DNA from: an uncultured Candidatus Peribacteria bacterium
GTDB taxonomy: Bacteria; Patescibacteriota; Gracilibacteria; UBA1369; UBA12470
NCBI GenBank assembly: GCA_964344725.1
Contig: CAYFOI010000001.1
Location: 61,762 to 125,761 of the forward strand
Direction: 5' to 3'
Length of the DNA stretch: 64,000 bases
Below, piece after piece: positions 4,460 through 56,053 of this stretch. Both the position numbers and the translations under genes were made by a program. A model generated the notes under the pieces. That model was not told the origin of the DNA. It searched no databases and saw only the letters and a program-made list of their open reading frames with translations. Positions within the stretch are counted from its first letter, which is position 1. Each line of letters starts with the position of its first letter.

Positions 4460-4467
4460 ATCTTATA

Positions 4468-4520
4468 TTGAGCGCTACCGCGCCAAGTTATTTTTAGGCC
4501 TGTGCGCCTTTGGCGCGACC
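4468..4520 (-). repeat. GC-rich hairpin pair (H1 bulged hairpin copy A at 4497-4520, plus GCGC-GGTA-GCGC hairpin at 4468-4487) between two pilus genes
   Basis: Minus-strand reading is GGTCGCGCCAAAGGCGCACAGGCC. Compare the copies at 8006-8029, 39268-39291 and 55958-55981. Confidence 0.7.
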
Positions 4521-5093
4521 TTATTTTTGAAAATAAGCGTTTAATTCTAAGGAATAAGAAAGTACATCATCATCACCCGACAAATTAATAGAGATGCTAT
4601 CCACTCCCATGAGCCTCACTTGATTGTCTAAATTCCCAGATGTCTCAATATATTCCAGGAATTTATAAAAATTATCTTCACTACTTTCAACCTTCATAGA
4701 AAAAGGCAGAACCATATATTTCCCATCAGAAGATTCATTGCTGTCGTTATAATTTATACTGCTGATAAAGAAAGGATTGTTTGAAAAATTATTAGCCACA
4801 GAAAACTCATCAAAAGCTCGAGTTAAAGAAGAAATATCTTCGCTATCCGGAAAAACTCCAGCAATCTCTTCGTTTTTAGCAGCATTAGAGTCTTGGAATA
4901 CCAATTTGCTCTCAGTAATACTGTCAGAAAGTGACGAAACATTACTCTCGACATCAATAATAGTAGCCTCAAGATCCGTATTATAATTGTACAAATCCAG
5001 ATAAGCCGTAACCCGGAAAAATCCAAAAACACCTAGCCCAACTAAGAGGGCAAGTGAAAGCAAAGTTTCGATTTTATTTTTTATTTTGTCCAT
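4521..5093 (-). CDS. hypothetical single-pass membrane protein in pilus cluster (PilN/PilO-like topology)
   Basis: N-terminal TM LLSLALLVGLGVFGFF followed by a ~150-aa soluble part. The assignment rests on position and topology only. Confidence 0.5.
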   Translation of the reverse strand: MDKIKNKIETLLSLALLVGLGVFGFFRVTAYLDLYNYNTDLEATIIDVESNVSSLSDSITESKLVFQDSNAAKNEEIAGVFPDSEDISSLTRAFDEFSVANNFSNNPFFISSINYNDSNESSDGKYMVLPFSMKVESSEDNFYKFLEYIETSGNLDNQVRLMGVDSISINLSGDDDVLSYSLELNAYFQK

Positions 5094-6666: not shown

Positions 6667-7224
6667 CTATTTCAATGTAACAGTAGCACCAGCTTCTTCA
6701 AGCTTAGCTTTTGCAGCCTCAGCATCTTCTGTCTTAGCTCCTTCTAGAACGTTCTTTGGAGCACCATCAACGATGTCTTTAGCTTCTTTCAAACCTAGTC
6801 CAGCAAGTTCTTTTACAACCTTGATGACTGCGATCTTTTGGCCTCCAGCAGCCGTAAGCTCAACGTCATAAGAATCTTTTTCTTCAGCGCCTCCAGCATC
6901 TCCGCCAGCAGCAGCGCCTCCAGCAGGCATTGCAGCCATCATTGCAGGAGCAGCAGCGCTAACGCCGAACTCATCTTCCATAGCCTTAACAAGGTCAGCA
7001 ACCTCCATAAGAGACATCTTTTTGACCATGTCTAGAACTTTTTGAGCATCTTTTGATAGCTCTACAGGTTCTTTTTCTTCTTTTGGTTCCTCTTTTTTCT
7101 CTACTTTCTTTGGTTCTTTTTTCTCCTCCTTCTTTTCTTCCTTTGCTTCTTCAGCTGGAGCAGCTTCCTCTGCAGGAGCGTCCTCCTTTTTCTCCTCTTC
7201 AGGAGTAGTGTTTTCGTCTGCCAT
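6667..7224 (-). CDS. rplL: ribosomal protein bL12 (L7/L12) with ~55-aa K/E/P-rich N-terminal extension
   Basis: The C-terminal 130 aa align by eye to L7/L12 ([24 protein letters not shown], Ala/Gly hinge, [27 protein letters not shown]...). It is preceded by [20 protein letters not shown]...KEEKEPVEL. Confidence 0.9.
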
Positions 7225-7819: not shown

Positions 7820-7907
7820 GATTTAGGTAGTTAGTAGATGTAGTGGTAGTTGTAGTAAATGGAGTTCTTCGGACAAATTATTAGTTATTACTTCCTAGTT
7901 CCTAGTT

Positions 7908-7950
7908 AAAAACAAAAAAGTCTCAAATTTTGTGCGCAGACATTTGAGAC
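7908..7950 (-). terminator. intrinsic terminator / attenuator inside the rplJ leader
   Basis: Minus-strand GUCUCAAAU-13 nt-AUUUGAGAC followed by UUUUUUGUUUUU, about 90 nt upstream of the rplJ ATG. Confidence 0.65.
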
Positions 7951-8100
7951 ATGACCCAAAGAAATGGAGATTGAGCTTCCGCTTCGCAGAAGCAGCTATC
8001 TTATTGGCCTGTGCACCTTCGGCGCGGCCTGACCAAATTCTTTTGTCTCGGCAGGTCTTATCAGGTCTCACTACGGGAGCCTGGCCTGCTGTCTGCGACC
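7951..8100 (-). promoter_or_regulatory. structured leader RNA upstream of rplJ-rplL (L10-leader-like), or a separate ~190-nt small RNA
   Basis: A GC-rich stretch between a consensus promoter and a terminator. It contains H1 hairpin copy B (8006-8029) and a GAA-loop hairpin (7974-7997). Track ORFs 7895..8212 and 7932..8246 overlap each other here and look non-coding. Confidence 0.55.
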
Positions 8101-8106
8101 GAGTGC

Positions 8107-8134
8107 ATTCTACTTTGATACTGGGCAAAGTCAA
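8107..8134 (-). promoter_or_regulatory. sigma70-type promoter TTGACT-N16-TAGAAT
   Basis: Read on the minus strand: -35 at 8134-8129 and -10 at 8112-8107. Confidence 0.6.
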
Positions 8135-8151
8135 GGTAAAATACACATCAC

Positions 8152-9090
8152 ATGAGCGATTTACTGACACAACTCGAATCTTTCCTGAAAGAGCCCAAAG
8201 AAAAACCCCCATTAATCATAGTTTTGGGGCCTACAGCTTCAGGTAAGACAAGTTTATCTGTAAAACTTGCCCAAAAATTCAATGGAGAGATCCTCTCTTC
8301 TGATTCTAGGCAAATTTACAGGTATATGGATATAGGAACAGACAAGATTTCGCAAAAAGAAATGCAAGGGATTAAACACTATATGCTAGATGTATGTGAC
8401 CCAGATCGAACTTATACAATGGCCGATTTTCAAAGAGAAGCAACACACTCTATTAAAGAGATCCTTAATAAAGGCAAAATACCATTTTTAGTAGGTGGTA
8501 CGGGACTTTACATAAACGCAATAGCTGACAATTACCAGCTCGACAATGCACCTCCAGATCCAGCATTGCGTACAGAATTAGAACAAGAACTCGAAGAAAA
8601 AGGTGCAGAAGCTCTGCATGAAATGCTCAAAGAACTTGATCCGCTTTCAGCTTCAAAAATCCATCCAAACAATCATCATTACCTGATAAGAGCTCTTGAA
8701 ATAAATCTGAAAACCAAGCAACCGAAAAGCAATCGCCGAGGCGAACCTCCATACGAAACTTTCAAAATTGGTATAGATTGGGATCGCGAAGAACTTTATG
8801 AAAAGATTAACAGCCGGGTAGACGAACAGATAGACCGCGGGATCTTAAACGAAATCAAAACACTTCTAGCAAAAGGATATTCGCGTAATCTGCCGGCAAT
8901 GACAGGACTCGGATACAAAGAGTTCTTCCCATACTTGGATGGAGAAGCAACCCTCGAAGAATGCCTGGAACAACTAAAACAAAACACTCGGAACTATGCG
9001 AAAAGACAAATGACTTGGTTCCGCCGCGACGATGAGATATATTGGATCACCCCAAAGGAAGCAGCACAAATTAAAACTTTAGAATTCTAG
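8152..9090 (+). CDS. miaA: tRNA dimethylallyltransferase
   Basis: P-loop GPTASGKTSL; SSDSRQIYRYMDIGTDK; typical ~310 aa. Confidence 0.9.
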   Translation: MSDLLTQLESFLKEPKEKPPLIIVLGPTASGKTSLSVKLAQKFNGEILSSDSRQIYRYMDIGTDKISQKEMQGIKHYMLDVCDPDRTYTMADFQREATHSIKEILNKGKIPFLVGGTGLYINAIADNYQLDNAPPDPALRTELEQELEEKGAEALHEMLKELDPLSASKIHPNNHHYLIRALEINLKTKQPKSNRRGEPPYETFKIGIDWDREELYEKINSRVDEQIDRGILNEIKTLLAKGYSRNLPAMTGLGYKEFFPYLDGEATLEECLEQLKQNTRNYAKRQMTWFRRDDEIYWITPKEAAQIKTLEF

Positions 9091-9111
9091 AATTCTAAAA
9101 CTCTACGACAG

Positions 9112-15773: not shown

Positions 15774-15882
15774 TAACTAATAACTAATAACTAACAACTA
15801 ATAACTAATAACTAACAACTAATAACTAATAACCACCACTACATACTACGGATTACGGATTAAGTACTACGTACTACCACTA
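15774..15882. repeat. stop-rich 7-nt-period word array (AACTAAT/AACTAAC x8, then TACGGAT / TACGTAC words)
   Basis: Direct reading: AACTAAT AACTAAT AACTAAC repeated, then CCACTACATAC TACGGAT TACGGAT TAAGTAC TACGTAC TAC. It starts at the stop of the SLH gene. Confidence 0.9.
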
Positions 15883-17602: not shown

Positions 17603-17703
17603 GTTAGAATTCTAGAATTTTAGAGTTTTAGACCATCACCACCTACTACTGACTACCCACTACACTACGTACTACGGATTACGGATTACGTACTACCAAC
17701 TAG
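17603..17703. repeat. stop-rich word arrays (CTAGAATT family inverted, then CTAC / GGATTACG family)
   Basis: GTTAGAATTCTAGAATTTTAGAGTTTTAGACC, then CACCTACTACTGACTACCCACTACACTACGTACTACGGATTACGGATTACGTACTACCAACTAG, ending on the hisS stop. Confidence 0.9.
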
Positions 17704-24323: not shown

Positions 24324-24418
24324 TTTGTTTGTTTTATGGAAATTCTCTTCAAATTCTAACCTAGAAGTAAAAAAAGTTCAAAATTTCAACAAAAAGGCCG
24401 ATGCCGCGACACACACAT

Positions 24419-24463
24419 CCCACTACATACTACGGATTACGTACTACGTACTAACAACGCTAC
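24419..24463. repeat. CTAC / GGATTACG word array overlapping the rlmD-like 3' end
   Basis: CCCACTACATACTACGGATTACGTACTACGTACTAACAACGCTAC. The stop (TAA, rc of 24437-39) and the last ~8 codons (..ALLVRST) lie inside the array. Confidence 0.85.
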
Positions 24464-25856: not shown

Positions 25857-26279
25857 ATGCTCAAAATAACAATCCTAAAAATCGGCAAACTCAAAAAAGA
25901 GTACGTAGAAGCAGAAAAAGAATTTCTAAAACGTCTCCAAGCCTTCGCCGACGTAACAGTAGAAACAAAAAAAGACGACGAATCTATAGCAAAATCACTA
26001 GATCCACAAACACACATAATCTCACTTGATCGTGAAGGCAAGCAATATTCATCCGAAGATTTTGCAGAAATAATCCGCGATCAAAGAGATTTCGGCAAAG
26101 GAGCGATCACTTTTTTAATCGGAGGTCCCCACGGGTTCCCTGAAGAAATAACAAGAAAAGCACACCTGCGCCTATCTTTCTCAAAGCTGACTTTTACGCA
26201 CCAGCTCGCATACATACTGCTTCTCGAACAACTCTATCGTACACACACCATTCTAAGCGGCAAAAAATACCACTACTAG
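25857..26279 (+). CDS. rlmH: 23S rRNA (pseudouridine1915-N3)-methyltransferase
   Basis: SPOUT fold motifs FLIGGPHGF, LSFSKLTFTHQL, EQLYR. Confidence 0.85.
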   Translation: MLKITILKIGKLKKEYVEAEKEFLKRLQAFADVTVETKKDDESIAKSLDPQTHIISLDREGKQYSSEDFAEIIRDQRDFGKGAITFLIGGPHGFPEEITRKAHLRLSFSKLTFTHQLAYILLLEQLYRTHTILSGKKYHY

Positions 26280-26313
26280 CTACTGACTACTGACTAAATC
26301 CTACTGACTGATA
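26268..26313. repeat. CTACTGA 7-nt word array spanning the rlmH stop to the next start
   Basis: TACCACTACTAG CTACTGA CTACTGA CTAAATC CTACTGA CTGATAA. A TGA or TAA occurs in each 7-nt unit. Confidence 0.9.
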
Positions 26314-33648: not shown

Positions 33649-35339
33649 AATCTGATAATTTTAGTGAACAACAGCTGGGAGGGGGAGCTCGTGAGGGGGA
33701 ACCTAAGGTGCCCACTCACGAATTAAGATCTGATATTTTAAAAAAAGACGTTGCAACAATCCCACACCGCGCGCTCTTGCGAGCATGCGGCGTTACAGAG
33801 GATGACTTCAAAAAACCTTTCATCGGAGTCGCAAACTCATATAACGACGTAGTGCCAGGACACATACATCTGAACGAATTAACAGAGGAAGTTAAGCGCG
33901 GAATCCGCGATGCTGGAGGCGTCCCATTTGCTTGGGGAGTGCCTGGAGTTTGTGACGGGATAGCGATGTATGCGGAAATGCGTTTATCTCTTCCATCTCG
34001 AGAACATATTGCTGACAACATCGAGATCATGATGCTTTCTCATTCGTTTGATGGATGGGTCGGAGTCACTAATTGCGACAAAATTACGCCAGGAATGCTC
34101 ATGGCAGCAGGTCGTTTAGACTTGCCAGCAATGCTGATAACAGGCGGCCCTATGAAAAGAGCGGAAAGTGATGGTGAAAAAGTTCATCCAATCCAAGGAT
34201 TCGGATACGCAGGACAAGTTAAAGCCGGCAAAATGAGCCTCGAAGAAGCTGAAAAGAAACTCCAAATCTGCTCAAAATGTGGAGCCGGCTCTTGCGTTGG
34301 TCTATACACAGCAAACACAATGGCTTGTGTGACCGAAACACTCGGTATGTCCGTCACGAAATGTGCAACGACATGGGCTCTTTCAGAAGAAAAAAAGAAT
34401 CAGGCTTACGAAACAGGTCGTCGCATAGTTGAGTTGGTACAGCAAGACATGAAACCGTCTCAAATTATGACGAAAGAATCTTTTGAAAACGCAGTCAGGG
34501 TAGATATGACAATGGGAGGATCCACAAACGCAGTTCTTCATATCCCAGCGATCGCAAAAGAACTCGGTATCGAGATTGGCAACGACGATTTCGATAGGAT
34601 AGCTCGTGAAACCCCGAACATCTGCAAGCTTATTCCGGCCTCGGACAAATATGAAATGATCGATCTTGATAGGGCAGGCGGAATCCCCGCAGTTTTGAGT
34701 CGGATAAAAGATATGATTAATGATGGACAGACTGTGAACGGACGAACCATTATGGAAATCGCATCTTCAGCTGAAATTCTAGACGATGATGTTGTGAGAC
34801 CACTAGACAATCCTTACTTCGAACAAGGTGGAATAGCCGTTTTGAAAGGCAACATCGCGGAAGGATCTGTAATCAAACAAACAGCAGTCGTAGAAGACAT
34901 GATGGAGCACTCAGGTCCGGCAAAAGTTTTCACTTCAGAAGAAGATTTACTTGTAGCAATTGAGAAGAAAGAGATCGAAGAAGGCGACGTAGTTGTAATG
35001 CAATATATGGGACCGGCTGGAGCACCTGGAATGCCGGAAATGCTTACTCCGACAGACGCGATCAAAGGCGCAGGTTACAAAAAAGTCGCACTAATAACAG
35101 ATGGCAGATTTTCAGGAGGAACCGTAGGTCCATGCATAGCTCATATCGAACCAGAAGCATTTAACGGTGGACCAATTGCAGCAATCCGAGATGGTGACAT
35201 CATAGAAATCAGCGTCCCAAATCGTACACTCAATGTGAAACTCTCAGACGAAGAAATCGCAGAACGTCTCAAAACCGCACAAGCACCAGAAAGAAAAATG
35301 ACATCAGTCCTTGAAAGATATCGTGACATGTATTCATAA
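33645..35339 (+). CDS. ilvD: dihydroxy-acid dehydratase
   Basis: PHRALLRACGV, CDGIAM, CDKITPGMLMAA, TDGRFSGGT. The ATG overlaps the upstream stop (ATGA). Homology begins near codon 24, and an in-frame GTG at 33708 is an alternative start. Confidence 0.9.
   Translation: MKSDNFSEQQLGGGAREGEPKVPTHELRSDILKKDVATIPHRALLRACGVTEDDFKKPFIGVANSYNDVVPGHIHLNELTEEVKRGIRDAGGVPFAWGVPGVCDGIAMYAEMRLSLPSREHIADNIEIMMLSHSFDGWVGVTNCDKITPGMLMAAGRLDLPAMLITGGPMKRAESDGEKVHPIQGFGYAGQVKAGKMSLEEAEKKLQICSKCGAGSCVGLYTANTMACVTETLGMSVTKCATTWALSEEKKNQAYETGRRIVELVQQDMKPSQIMTKESFENAVRVDMTMGGSTNAVLHIPAIAKELGIEIGNDDFDRIARETPNICKLIPASDKYEMIDLDRAGGIPAVLSRIKDMINDGQTVNGRTIMEIASSAEILDDDVVRPLDNPYFEQGGIAVLKGNIAEGSVIKQTAVVEDMMEHSGPAKVFTSEEDLLVAIEKKEIEEGDVVVMQYMGPAGAPGMPEMLTPTDAIKGAGYKKVALITDGRFSGGTVGPCIAHIEPEAFNGGPIAAIRDGDIIEISVPNRTLNVKLSDEEIAERLKTAQAPERKMTSVLERYRDMYS
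33654..33720 (+). repeat. 67-nt G-rich hairpin module, copy 1 (inside annotated ilvD 5' end)
   Basis: 61/67 identical to 35447-35513 by manual alignment. Stems CGTGAG/CTCACG and GGGAACC/GGTGCCC. Confidence 0.9.
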
Positions 35340-37183
35340 TGACAAAGAATATTAAAAAAGGTGAATTAAAATTATACGAGCGCACGTCGAAACAAAAGAG
35401 ACGGGTCTCGTGGGTCCCGGCTCGCCTTGTTTCTAAGTTTAGTGAGGATGATTTTAATGAACAACAGCTGGGAGGGGGAGCCCGCGAGGGGGAACCTAAG
35501 GTACCCACTCGCGACAACTTAACAGGGTCGGATATAATAATGAAAAGCCTTATTAAAGAGGGAACAAAAGTCATATTCGGATATCCAGGAGGCGCGCTGA
35601 TCCCAATTTATGATGCAATGACCAACTATCCAGAGCTCAGGCATATCCTTGTAAGACACGAACAAGGCGCAGCTCTCGCCGCAGACGGATACGCTAGATC
35701 AACCGGCGAAGTTGGGGTTTGCCTAGGGACGTCAGGTCCAGGCGCAACCAACCTAGTCACGGGTATTGCAAACGCATACATGGACTCGGTCCCAATGGTT
35801 GCGATAACAGGACAGGTTAACAAAGGAATGCTAGGTAGCGACGCTTTCCAAGAAGTCGATATTACAGGAATTACGCTCCCGATTACGAAACACAATTATC
35901 TTGTCGACAATACAGAGGATCTCCCGATGATTATTAAGGAAGCTTTTTATATAGCAAAAAGCGGTCGCCCGGGTCCTGTGCATATCGATATTCCAGTCGA
36001 TCTTTGTAAAAAATCTTTAGACAGCTTTGAATATCCAGAAAAAATAGAAATCCCAGGCTTCGAAATCCCAGGTAAAGCGGACGAAGAAGCTGTGAAGAGA
36101 GCGGTAGAACTGATCCAAGAGTCAAAAAAACCGGTAATAATCTGTGGACATGGAGTTCCGATTTCAGGAGCATCCAAAGAGCTCACAGAACTTGCAGAAA
36201 GAAGCCACATTCCAGTAGTTCACACAATCCTCGGCAAAGGATCTTTCCCAGAAAGCAGTCCATTGTCATTCGGAATGCTAGGAATGCATGGTATGGCTTA
36301 TGCGAACTTCGCAGTTCATCACTCAGACTTAATAATCAATGTCGGATCACGTTTTGACGATAGAATTACAGGCAGCTTAGACGCTTTCGCAAAAGGAGCG
36401 AAGGTGATTCATGTCGATATCGACGCATCCGAGATCAACAAAAACGTTCCAGCATACTTGCCAGTAGTCGGTGACGCAAAAAAAGTCCTCAAGCAAATTC
36501 TCGAAATCCTGCCACACAAAAAACACCCAGATTGGCTTGATGAAATCGACGGATGGACTAAGAATTACCCACTCGCAGGCAAGGAAACAGAGATGCTCAC
36601 AGTTCCAAAAGTCCTTGTAAAACTGCACGAAGCAACAAAGGGTGATGCTCTTATAGTAACAGATGTAGGACAGCACCAAATGTGGTCAGCCCAATACTAT
36701 CCCCAAGACAAACCAAATAAATTCCACACATCAGGAGGTCTTGGCGCAATGGGATACGGACTCCCTGCAGCAATTGGAGCCCGTGTCGCAGATCCTGACG
36801 AAGAAATTTGGCTAATCAGCGGCGATGGAAGCTTCCAAATGAACATTCAGGAGCTTATGACAATTGTTCAGGAAAACATCGATATAAAGATCGCAATAAT
36901 GAACAATGGATTCCTTGGCATGGTCCGCCAATGGCAAGAAATGTTTTACGACAAAAACTACTCAGGCACACCGATAACAAGTCCAGATTACCAACTAATC
37001 GCAGAAGGCTACGGACTAAAACACTTAAGAGCTCGCACGGAGCAGGAGGCAGAAGACGTTATAAAAGCGGCTCGCGATCTCAAAGGTACGGTAATATGCG
37101 AATTTATAATAGAGCCAGAAGACAACGTATTTCCAATGGTCGCACCAGGCAAAGGACTAAAAGACACGTTGATTGGGAAATAG
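35339..37183 (+). CDS. ilvB: acetolactate synthase (AHAS) large subunit
   Basis: FGYPGGALIPIYDA, GLGAMGYGLPAAIGA, GDGSFQMN. The ATG overlaps the ilvD stop (TAATG). Homology starts near codon 62, and ATG 35540 is an alternative start. Confidence 0.9.
   Translation: MTKNIKKGELKLYERTSKQKRRVSWVPARLVSKFSEDDFNEQQLGGGAREGEPKVPTRDNLTGSDIIMKSLIKEGTKVIFGYPGGALIPIYDAMTNYPELRHILVRHEQGAALAADGYARSTGEVGVCLGTSGPGATNLVTGIANAYMDSVPMVAITGQVNKGMLGSDAFQEVDITGITLPITKHNYLVDNTEDLPMIIKEAFYIAKSGRPGPVHIDIPVDLCKKSLDSFEYPEKIEIPGFEIPGKADEEAVKRAVELIQESKKPVIICGHGVPISGASKELTELAERSHIPVVHTILGKGSFPESSPLSFGMLGMHGMAYANFAVHHSDLIINVGSRFDDRITGSLDAFAKGAKVIHVDIDASEINKNVPAYLPVVGDAKKVLKQILEILPHKKHPDWLDEIDGWTKNYPLAGKETEMLTVPKVLVKLHEATKGDALIVTDVGQHQMWSAQYYPQDKPNKFHTSGGLGAMGYGLPAAIGARVADPDEEIWLISGDGSFQMNIQELMTIVQENIDIKIAIMNNGFLGMVRQWQEMFYDKNYSGTPITSPDYQLIAEGYGLKHLRARTEQEAEDVIKAARDLKGTVICEFIIEPEDNVFPMVAPGKGLKDTLIGK
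35447..35513 (+). repeat. 67-nt G-rich hairpin module, copy 2 (inside annotated ilvB 5' end)
   Basis: See copy 1. The outer stem here is CGCGAG/CTCGCG. Confidence 0.9.
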
Positions 37184-37254
37184 TCAGTAGAAACTAACTT
37201 GCGCAAAGCGCTCCACTACTAAAATCCTCTAATCCTACAACCCTACAATCCTCC
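37181..37254. repeat. word array + GCGC-AAA-GCGC hairpin (37198-37214) + AATCCTNN 8-nt array between ilvB and ilvN
   Basis: TAGTCAGTAGAAACTAACTTGCGCAAAGCGCTCCACTACTAAAATCCTCTAATCCTACAACCCTACAATCCTCC, then ATG. Confidence 0.85.
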
Positions 37255-38096: not shown

Positions 38097-38137
38097 AAAA
38101 CTAATTCTAGAATTCTAAAACTCTAAAATTCTAACCC
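38091..38137. repeat. CTAGAATT/CTAAAACT 8-nt word array between ridA and ilvC
   Basis: AACTAGAAAACTAATTCTAGAATTCTAAAACTCTAAAATTCTAACCC. The same family occurs at 1051-1081, 6645-6669, 9073-9105 and (inverted) 17603-17634. Confidence 0.9.
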
Positions 38138-38146
38138 ATATACACT

Positions 38147-39221: not shown

Positions 39222-39341
39222 AACTTTCGAACGGACCATGTCGGGCCGAAAGTTTTGTCAGCCAGCAGGCCGCGCCGAAGGCGCACAGGCCACAACGCTC
39301 GCAAGAGCGCAGTATATAAAAGTTTCGCCGTAAGGCGAAAC
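39222..39341 (+). other. cluster of four consecutive GC-rich hairpins downstream of ilvC (includes H1 copy C)
   Basis: AACTTTCG/CGAAAGTT (39222-54); H1 GGCCGCGCCGAAGGCGCACAGGCC (39268-91); CGCTC-GCAA-GAGCG (39296-309); GTTTCGCC-GTAA-GGCGAAAC (39322-41). None is followed by a T-run. Confidence 0.7.
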
Positions 39342-47884: not shown

Positions 47885-47985
47885 TTTAGGTAGTAGCTTG
47901 TGGCTTGTAGCTTGTAGTATATATTGCGCGAAGCGCTCAATTACTACTGACTAATTCCTACTCTCTACTGACTACTGACTAAAAT
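47885..47985. repeat. tripartite element: GTAG-word arm, TTGCGC-GAA-GCGCTCAA hairpin (47924-47940), CTAC/CTGA-word arm
   Basis: TTTAGGTAGTAGCTTGTGGCTTGTAGCTTGTAGTA...TTGCGCGAAGCGCTCAA...TTACTACTGACTAATTCCTACTCTCTACTGACTACTGACTAA. Confidence 0.85.
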
Positions 47986-49168: not shown

Positions 49169-49260
49169 TCGAAAGAGCATCTAGCAGCACTAACAAGATT
49201 TTTGGCGATAGGCGAAAGAACGTACTTATGCGAAGTGAAAGAGCCTATCGACCAAAAATC
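49169..49260. repeat. mosaic element modules M1 + M2; M2 forms a 17-bp long-stem hairpin abutting the corA stop
   Basis: GATTTTTGGCGATAGGC (49197-213) pairs with GCCTATCGACCAAAAATC (49243-60), with one bulged A. The 5' arm is shared with 55864-55880. Confidence 0.7.
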
Positions 49261-52631: not shown

Positions 52632-52712
52632 TAGTAGTTTGTAGTGGTAGTAGGTAGTAATGGAGCGCTTCGCGCAAATACACTACGTACTACGGATTAT
52701 GTACTACATTTG
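52632..52712. repeat. tripartite element: TAG/GTAG arm, GGAGCGC-TTC-GCGCAAA hairpin (52662-52678), CTAC/GGATTA arm
   Basis: TAGTAGTAGTTTGTAGTGGTAGTAGGTAGTAATGGAGCGCTTCGCGCAAATACACTACGTACTACGGATTATGTACTAC. Confidence 0.85.
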
Positions 52713-52775
52713 CAACCTTCCCCCTGTTTAGAGTATTATTCGCTCTGAACTTTTTACAAATAAATTAAAACGGCA

Positions 52776-55865: not shown

Positions 55866-56053
55866 TTTTTGGCGATAGGCCAAAAACTCCTAACAGATTG
55901 CCACGTAAGATTTTTTTAAGGCTTAGAGCAACCTTAGAAACGTCTCGCCAGATAACAGGCCGCTCCAAAGGAGCACAGGCCCCATACAAATAAACGCGTT
56001 CTAAAAGAACGCTTCCTAATAATGCGAGACTTTCTCGAGAGCGAAAAGCATTA
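55864..56053 (+). repeat. mosaic intergenic element, long version (M2, M3, H1 copy D at 55958-55981, second hairpin, M4)
   Basis: Basal stem GAAACGTC (55937-44) / GACTTTC (56028-34) encloses ~83 nt that are absent from the otherwise homologous copy at 23023-23092. Confidence 0.7.

Follow-up and report, generated by a model that had tools for sequence, protein, structure and literature searches.

A probable family of REP-like hairpin repeats in transcribed spacers of Candidatus Peregrinibacteria

REPs are short (20-40 nt), GC-rich imperfect palindromes that lie outside genes, mostly downstream of ORFs, with some within genes (PMC3733652, PMC3333891, PMC3116915), and one of their ends carries a conserved tetranucleotide, GTAG or CGTC (PMC3733652, PMC3333891). 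The hairpin analyzed here, hairpin A, resembles REP, BIME and REPIN elements as an imperfect palindrome with an unpaired feature in its stem (24-25 nt, 9 bp, with an ACA bulge). Like REPs, it is extragenic, plausibly transcribed and mosaic with linkers and hairpins, and its occupancy varies between related genomes. In contrast to REPs, no GTAG or CGTC tag was present on either strand at hairpin A, where the 5' flanks are TAACA, TAA, TCA or GCA and the 3' side is C/A-rich, and no inverted pairs of the BIME/REPIN type were found; the copies are single and the neighboring hairpins belong to other sequence families. Hairpin A is therefore not a REP in the strict sense. The two also differ in density, with REPs often exceeding 100 per genome and hairpin A appearing much sparser (4 copies in the 64-kb window, by which we mean the whole stretch of 64,000 nucleotides that was analyzed). 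REP hosts are Proteobacteria in which the repeats flank a RAYT (Y1 HUH transposase) gene, whereas the host of hairpin A belongs to the CPR, its copies are strictly sense and no RAYT was found in the sequence scanned. REPs stabilize upstream mRNA, and Liang, Rudd and Deutscher reportedly found in 2015 that REPs within ~15 nt of a stop codon reduce expression via ribosome stalling and tmRNA.

Elhai et al. are said to have described in 2008 (Genome Res) the SDR1-8 repeats of Nostocaceae as 21-27-nt intergenic repeats without target duplication that are sometimes nested in larger hairpins. To our knowledge, stop-codon abutment and sense-only orientation are not SDR features. SDRs and hairpin A are both short intergenic repeats without target duplication whose presence or absence differs between relatives; SDRs are reported in Nostocaceae only and SDR5 targets HIP1, whereas the host of hairpin A is a Peregrinibacterium. 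The SDR work is cited in passages of PMC5861425 and PMC4390886. IS608-type chemistry is described in PMC3333891, and IS200/IS605 elements have bulged subterminal hairpins that are recognized as single strands, with strand-specific insertion 3' of a short target and no duplication (PMC3333891). Hairpin A resembles them in its bulge, its strand specificity and its lack of a clear target duplication. In contrast, the module that contains hairpin A is only ~55-80 nt long, its two hairpins are unlike each other and no transposase was found in the sequence scanned.

Rickettsia palindromic elements are 100-150 bp long and can sit in frame within genes, and GC clusters are small GC-rich palindromes of yeast mitochondrial DNA. 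Together with hairpin A, all are small GC-rich palindromic insertions in AT-rich genomes. The in-frame insertion of Rickettsia palindromic elements is paralleled by a hairpin A copy in the rplX gene of one organism (organism A, below). Neither these elements nor the GC clusters are related in sequence to hairpin A. Intercistronic stem-loops are also found in the selectively processed and stabilized Rhodobacter puf and clostridial cip-cel operons; these and hairpin A are both stable intercistronic hairpins and could set segmental mRNA stability, but the puf and cip-cel stem-loops are locus-unique and form no dispersed family.

In the literature, no dispersed repeat families were found described for CPR/Peregrinibacteria, and the Peribacteria genome paper mentions none; hairpin A would be a new family of REP-like elements in a phylum with none found described. 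We consider it probable (about 0.6) that its copies make up one family of dispersed palindromes, short, GC-rich and REP-like, carried by a subgroup of Candidatus Peregrinibacteria (Peribacteria-like CPR bacteria). Its unusual traits are sense-only orientation, stop-codon abutment and a bias to ribosomal-protein operons. In tiny CPR genomes, pressure is expected on every intergenic base, and sense-only landings past stop codons in essential ribosomal-protein operons offer a handle on operon mRNA organization without Shine-Dalgarno motifs. Hairpin A also points to a copying mechanism outside the GTAG-REP/RAYT scheme. In practical terms, filled and empty sites might help to tell strains apart, and repeats of this kind can disrupt the assembly of metagenomes.

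Hairpin A and its accompanying hairpins in the window

The window has a GC content of 40.8% and its closest named L10 relatives are Candidatus Peregrinibacteria (CPR), with up to 77-78% identity. Its genes include rplJ-rplL followed by a type IV pilus operon, ilvC and a RelB/YafQ toxin-antitoxin pair. An initial annotation of the window had proposed four copies of a bulged GC hairpin. Searching with its pattern returned exactly these four, with the sequences it had quoted, compared with 0 in dinucleotide-preserving shuffles (0 expected). The consensus of hairpin A is GGCC-GCGCC-GAA-GGCGC-ACA-GGCC and its degenerate motif is GGYCGCNCC-N3-4-GGNGCACAGGCC. The copies in the window are as follows.

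39268..39291, + strand: hairpin A between ilvC (KARI) and a Na+/H+ exchanger gene
55958..55981, + strand: hairpin A with a U:A compensatory pair, an AAA loop and TAACA at its 5' side
8006..8029, - strand: hairpin A, G:U variant, within the rplJ 5' leader
4497..4520, - strand: hairpin A, outer U:G variant with an AAA loop

The contexts differ, as the annotation had described (pilus operon, rplJ leader, after ilvC, and a mosaic after a toxin gene), and gene annotation agreed. The 39268 copy lies 78 nt past the ilvC stop codon and 95 nt ahead of the exchanger ATG, and the 55958 copy has the YafQ-like toxin gene on one side and a convergent pilin-like gene on the other. The 4497 copy begins immediately 3' of the TAA stop of a 190-aa pilO-like gene of the pilus operon, and its end is 37 nt from the ATG of pilB (T2SSE). 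All four copies are sense to the nearest co-directional gene. Copy orientation seems to track the local gene strand, and neither skew switches lastingly along the window.

RNA folding reproduced the proposed architecture for every variant, with stems of 4 bp (outer) and 5 bp (inner) below a 3-nt loop and with ACA bulged on the 3' side, at predicted energies of -11.2 to -13.9 kcal/mol; the reverse complement (antisense) was of equal stability. The substitutions listed in the annotation were all found, with the third inner pair being G:C, G:U or U:A and the outer stem carrying a U:G pair. When folded in native context, hairpin A formed at three of the four window copies; at 4497, pairing with the second hairpin competes as an alternative. 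A kink-turn was rejected, as there are no tandem G.A pairs beside the bulge. In Rfam searches a tRNA was the sole window match at gathering score, and local E-value searches placed nothing on hairpin A.

A DNA-level signal, either a DNA-uptake sequence or a solitary CRISPR repeat, might be suspected from the type IV pilus genes and from a loose resemblance to CRISPR repeat stems. We regard this as extremely unlikely. The copies occur at a density of only ~1 per 16 kb, are strictly sense, lie kilobases apart and form no arrays with regular spacing, and no Rfam CRISPR match fell on the hairpin.

A second hairpin 3' of each copy had also been noted, and a GC-rich hairpin was indeed present after 4-13 nt at all four. 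The modules and hairpins that accompany hairpin A in the window are as follows.

7975..8029, - strand: rplJ-leader module of about 55 nt, consisting of hairpin A, AATAAGATA and a second hairpin (7975-7996)
4460..4520, - strand: pilus-junction module of 61 nt, consisting of hairpin A, TAAAAATAACTTG, GCGC-GGTA-GCGC (4472-4483) and TCAATATAAGAT
39296..39309, + strand: second hairpin CGCTC-GCAA-GAGCG, 4 nt past hairpin A
39323..39340, + strand: third hairpin TTTCGCC-GTAA-GGCGAAA, in the same spacer as the 39268 copy
55994..56014, + strand: second hairpin ACGCGTTC-TAAAA-GAACGCTT, 12 nt past hairpin A
55942..56030, + strand: enclosing stem, GTCTCGC (55942-55948) with GCGAGAC (56024-56030), containing hairpin A and the second hairpin

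The region within the enclosing stem (55942..56030) had a fold z of -5.8. At most copies the usual order is hairpin A, a G-poor A/C-rich linker (..CAATAAC..), a variable second GC hairpin, ..TCAA(T).. and the next ATG. Second-hairpin types include GTCGC-RAA-GCGAC, GCGCC-AAA-GGCGC and GCGC-N3-4-GCGC, among others. The motifs ..AATAAC and ..TCAA(T) recur around second hairpins in several genomes.

Occupied and empty junctions in related genomes

We compared the window with four syntenic relatives (loci L118-L125; L10 identity 63-78%). No hairpin A copy was found in them with up to 5 mismatches allowed. The 61-nt module at 4460..4520 makes up the entire spacer from the pilO-like gene to pilB in the window. 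In the four relatives this spacer is 1-3 nt (...CAAAAATAA-CGA-ATG or another 1-3 nt), and the protein ends are the same. An 8-nt sequence, AAAAATAA, flanks the 4497-4520 copy at 4484-4491 and 4521-4528 (- strand); the pair may have arisen by target duplication or, in sequence this rich in A, by chance. A 7-nt target duplication (ACAGGCC on either side of the inner hairpin) was considered and rejected, as it is missing at four copies.

Two features of the rplJ region define the setting of the 8006 copy.

8134-8107, - strand: rplJ promoter-like site TTGACT-16-TAGAAT, upstream of the 8006 copy and conserved
7905-8116, - strand: L10-leader-like attenuator with a hairpin plus U-run and an L10-binding-like stem

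The promoter-like site and the attenuator place the 8006 copy in the sense direction of transcription. When the window was aligned with L118 and L123, the promoter, a GGTCGCAGACAGCAGG...CCTGCCGAGAC stem and the hairpin-plus-U-run attenuator matched on both sides, and ~55 extra bases in the window (hairpin A, AATAAGATA and the second hairpin) were missing from L118 and L123. The Rfam L10_leader model (RF00557) matched the rplJ leader at 20.5 bits, below its gathering score of 44, and its alignment models the 8006 module as an insert in an unpaired linker. This sub-threshold match suggests that the rplJ leader is a divergent CPR version of the L10 leader. The product of rplL (6667-7224, - strand) is 185 aa compared with 146-171 aa in relatives, and its N-terminus carries a Lys/Glu-rich extension of ~55 aa preceding the L12 dimerization domain.

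Judged from these alignments, the copies in the rplJ leader and the pilus junction are clean insertions. Hairpin A is no ancestral part of the rplJ and pilus regions, because it is absent from relatives with conserved flanks, and neither for rplJ nor for the pilus operon or ilvC does it represent an ancestral control site.

Copies outside the window were identified in two ways. A highly degenerate pattern was run against genome contigs, and among the matches listed the true ones were L022 and L023 (Candidatus Peribacteria MAGs), the remaining listed matches being chance matches in high-GC genomes. The original pattern matched seven stretches in JGI metagenomes, three of them true (L129-L131), and gave 0 matches in viral contigs. 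Two organisms were represented by several loci each: organism A (L022, L133-135, L139-140) and organism B (L130, L131, L136, L141-143), whose rpoA is 82% identical to that of organism A. No genes common to the window and organisms A-D were detected by tblastn. In total ~12 copies were seen.

Organism A has one intact copy, in the rpoA-rplQ gap, where the first G of the element is the G of the TAG stop. In L144, whose rpoA is 90% identical to that of organism A, the same junction consists of TTTTTCACT only, a 9-nt spacer. Two further, decayed copies in organism A have been absorbed into the 3' ends of coding regions. In rplX, a 23-nt hairpin A copy lies in frame (L139 9036-9058) and adds 4 aa, so that the protein reads AAPKAQGPS compared with KDDKA in organism B. 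In rpsQ, the decayed copy (L139 8370-8416) is read through and lengthens the C-terminus by 14 aa, up to the rplN start. Organism B carries four intact copies in ~12 kb of ribosomal-protein operon.

Organism B, rplP-rpmC (L16-L29): intact copy
Organism B, rpsN-rpsH (S14-S8): intact copy, loop GATA
Organism B, rpsH-rplF (S8-L6): intact copy
Organism B, rpsK-rpsD (S11-S4): intact copy, loop GCTA

The proteins upstream of these inserts keep their native C-termini and stop codons. At the same four junctions, organism A has overlapping genes, tiny gaps or unrelated hairpins. Such junctions show that hairpin A has been inserted where spacers are transcribed, be it in gaps between cistrons, in a 5' leader or in 3' regions. 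It is gained and lost between species, and it decays when absorbed into gene 3' ends.

A stable GC-rich hairpin 3' of genes could also be an intrinsic transcription terminator or attenuator. This is very unlikely for hairpin A, as a U-run follows none of the copies and several stand within essential operons (S8-L6, L16-L29, rpoA-L17). Hairpin A was not called by the terminator scan. The rplJ attenuator of this genome is of the canonical type, with a hairpin and a U-run.

Orientation, placement and sequence constraint

Ten independent intact sites were examined for common features. All ten were sense to the upstream gene (two-sided binomial ~0.002), and this strand bias favors relevance at the RNA level. 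The element starts 0-2 nt past the native stop codon at 7 of the 10 sites, with junctions of the form TAA-CA-GGCC (n=4), TAA-GG(C/T)C (n=2) and TAG-GCC (n=1), and six of the ten belong to ribosomal-protein operons or the rplJ leader. No general tendency to hairpins 3' of stop codons was seen across the window. TAACA forms the 5' flank at 6 of 11 copies and TAA or TAG at 3. TAA-CA also precedes unrelated hairpins in the same spacers, and may therefore be stop-codon context and no part of the element. A boxA/boxB nut-like site was rejected, TAACA being the sole match and equal to stop-codon context; a SECIS or read-through signal was likewise rejected, as the stops are TAA or TAG at native positions.

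The stems and bulge of the intact copies contained one double compensatory change and two G:U changes, all of them pair-preserving on the sense strand, and were otherwise invariant. The loops were GAA, AAA, GATA, GCTA or TTC. A search with up to 6 mismatches revealed no intact-length copy with broken pairs, and the lack of pair-breaking change in intact copies also favors relevance at the RNA level. Statistical support for covariation was thin, with 7 of the 9 pairs invariant and the observed score reached by 57 of 500 shuffles. Thus, the structure-preserving substitutions put forward in the annotation are real as individual changes, but as a covariation signal they carry little weight. A structure-only search for any 4+5-bp hairpin with an ACA bulge added no members of different sequence, which argues that hairpin A is a sequence family and not a structure family. 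Given this and the weak covariation, the main signal is sequence invariance.

In L129 and L023, hairpin A occupies one orthologous site (L023 904-927, L129 5456-5479), 14 nt upstream of a multicopper-oxidase gene. All 21 of the 21 non-loop bases are identical, compared with 53% identity at four-fold degenerate sites of the flanking genes; this difference indicates either constraint or homogenization of the element. The two species differ in the loop (GAA versus TTC), which looks like a hairpin-loop inversion.

These regularities bear on the possibility that hairpin A is a selected cis-acting RNA element, a site at which a specific RNA-binding protein or an endoribonuclease would process or tune polycistronic mRNAs, above all those of ribosomal-protein operons, with copies recruited and kept by selection and not selfish. 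We consider this possible, if rather unlikely. It would fit the sense orientation of all ten sites even though the antisense hairpin is equally stable, the abutment of seven to a stop codon and the location of six in ribosomal-protein operons or the rplJ leader. It would also fit the invariance of the ACA bulge and stems with a free loop, the conservation of the L129/L023 copy well past neutral expectation, and the finding that both single substitutions are wobble-compatible on the sense strand only. However, the same essential junctions lack the hairpin in close relatives, and in other species an occupied junction may hold unrelated hairpins instead. Coding sequence tolerates copies, which decay there, and others stand in unrelated contexts (toxin-antitoxin and ilvC 3' regions). 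No candidate protein was identified and covariation is weak.

Possible modes of spread and effects on mRNA

The annotation had left two explanations side by side, a protein-recognition or RNA-processing hairpin and a REP-like core. The latter is better supported, on the basis of filled/empty polymorphism with conserved flanks, species-specific occupancy, hairpin mosaics and decay in coding 3' ends, which typify REP-like small dispersed repeats and not a regulator dedicated to one gene. The former is favored by the strand bias, but no RNase or regulator was identified for it. Conservation at the orthologous site and strict sense orientation could equally reflect a selected RNA function rather than selfish spread. 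The sense-only orientation does not follow from stability alone, since the antisense hairpin is equally stable; it needs either recognition of the RNA sequence (the 3'-side ACA bulge) or copying tied to the transcribed strand. That stem and bulge are retained in several genomes while the loop is free to vary points to a trans-acting protein that recognizes the element by its sequence. This protein might be an enzyme that copies the element or an RNA-binding factor. A copying enzyme could be of the ssDNA-specific HUH/Y1 type and work on the non-template strand that is displaced when operons are highly transcribed, and such action would account for the bias to ribosomal-protein operons.

A specific version of this idea is a miniature IS200/IS605-type (PATE-like) element, with hairpin A as its left end, the second hairpin as its right end, insertion 3' of TAAC(A) without duplication, an end at TCAA, and a Y1 HUH transposase acting in trans on ssDNA. 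The bulged hairpin, strand specificity and lack of target duplication are compatible with it, as are TAACA 5' of 6 of 11 copies, the presence of two hairpins in both window insertions (rplJ leader and pilus junction) and ..TCAA(T) just 3' of the second hairpin at window copies 4497 and 8006 and at three organism B copies. We nevertheless think such an element unlikely. The unlike sequences of the second hairpins speak against one transposon with two ends, and several copies (rpoA-rplQ, L129/L023) have no second hairpin. TAA-CA, as described above, precedes unrelated hairpins too, and orientation tracks genes with no evident replication strand. No Y1 transposase (PF01797) was found among 20 window ORFs by Pfam scan or in the Pfam lists of ~250 kb of related loci. 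The missing transposase and the differing second hairpins also weigh against the REP-like reading, as does the finding that the copies showed no terminal inverted repeats beyond the hairpin itself and no clear target duplication.

Under the REP-like reading, the effect on the host would be that of a stable mRNA hairpin (about -12 to -14 kcal/mol) just 3' of a stop codon. If it acts at all, hairpin A probably acts as an intercistronic mRNA hairpin. It may block 3' exonucleases and insulate the cistrons from one another, and the second hairpin may cap the downstream segment before an unstructured, G-poor, Shine-Dalgarno-less leader. Analysis of the 20 nt upstream of 65 window start codons revealed weakly structured leaders with 8.8% G and 43% A, and no GGAGG-type Shine-Dalgarno motif was present in them; translation initiation in this organism is probably independent of Shine-Dalgarno pairing. 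A broader and doubtful proposal is that CPR bacteria lacking Shine-Dalgarno motifs punctuate their polycistronic mRNAs with a modular, sequence-specific system made up of hairpin A, the G-poor linker and the second hairpin. The stem and ACA bulge on sense RNA, just 3' of the stop codon, would be read by a dedicated protein that controls processing, stability or re-initiation, above all in ribosomal-protein operons, and new copies would arise through an undescribed transcription-linked copying.

Other short hairpins and repeats were seen in the same spacers. GCGC-N3-GCGC mini-hairpins occurred three times in the window compared with 0.26 expected.

37201..37211, + strand: solo mini-hairpin GCGC-AAA-GCGC, of the same type as second hairpins

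Related solo mini-hairpins lie at 47926-47936 and 52665-52675. The form GCGC-N3/4-GCGC, also seen at 4472-4483, resembles the inner stem of hairpin A, and 47924-47953 and 52648-52677 are inverted copies of one 30-nt unit. The sequence TTTTTGGCGATAGGC occurs twice in the window, at 55866-55886 as an A/T-flanked hairpin directly 3' of the toxin gene and at about 49195-49215 as one arm of a long hairpin.

Tandem or dispersed repeats of 7-8 nt (TAACTAA; CTACTGA; TAGAATTC/TAAAACTC; ACTACGGATTACGGATTA) are abundant in window spacers, often with a small GC hairpin on one side and the following start codon on the other. Such spacers lie at 1052-1086, 9072-9111, 15774-15876, 17605-17702, 24414-24453, 26271-26310, 38100-38139, 47958-47983 and 52634-52713. 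The heptamer repeats prompted comparison with a cyanobacterial SDR element, which was ruled out as the window proteins are those of Peregrinibacteria. A 68-nt direct repeat (91% identical; 33654-33721 and 35447-35514) coincides with the starts of two adjacent paralogous genes of ~600 aa. Finally, a third hairpin family, YGGAAAC.GG-loop-CC.GTTTCCR, was seen in organisms A and B, where it lies directly 3' of TAA-C(C)A in spacers between ribosomal-protein genes (L139 10388-10441 and 9920-10000; L134 9312-9364; L141 2060-2106), at junctions that differ from those occupied by hairpin A.
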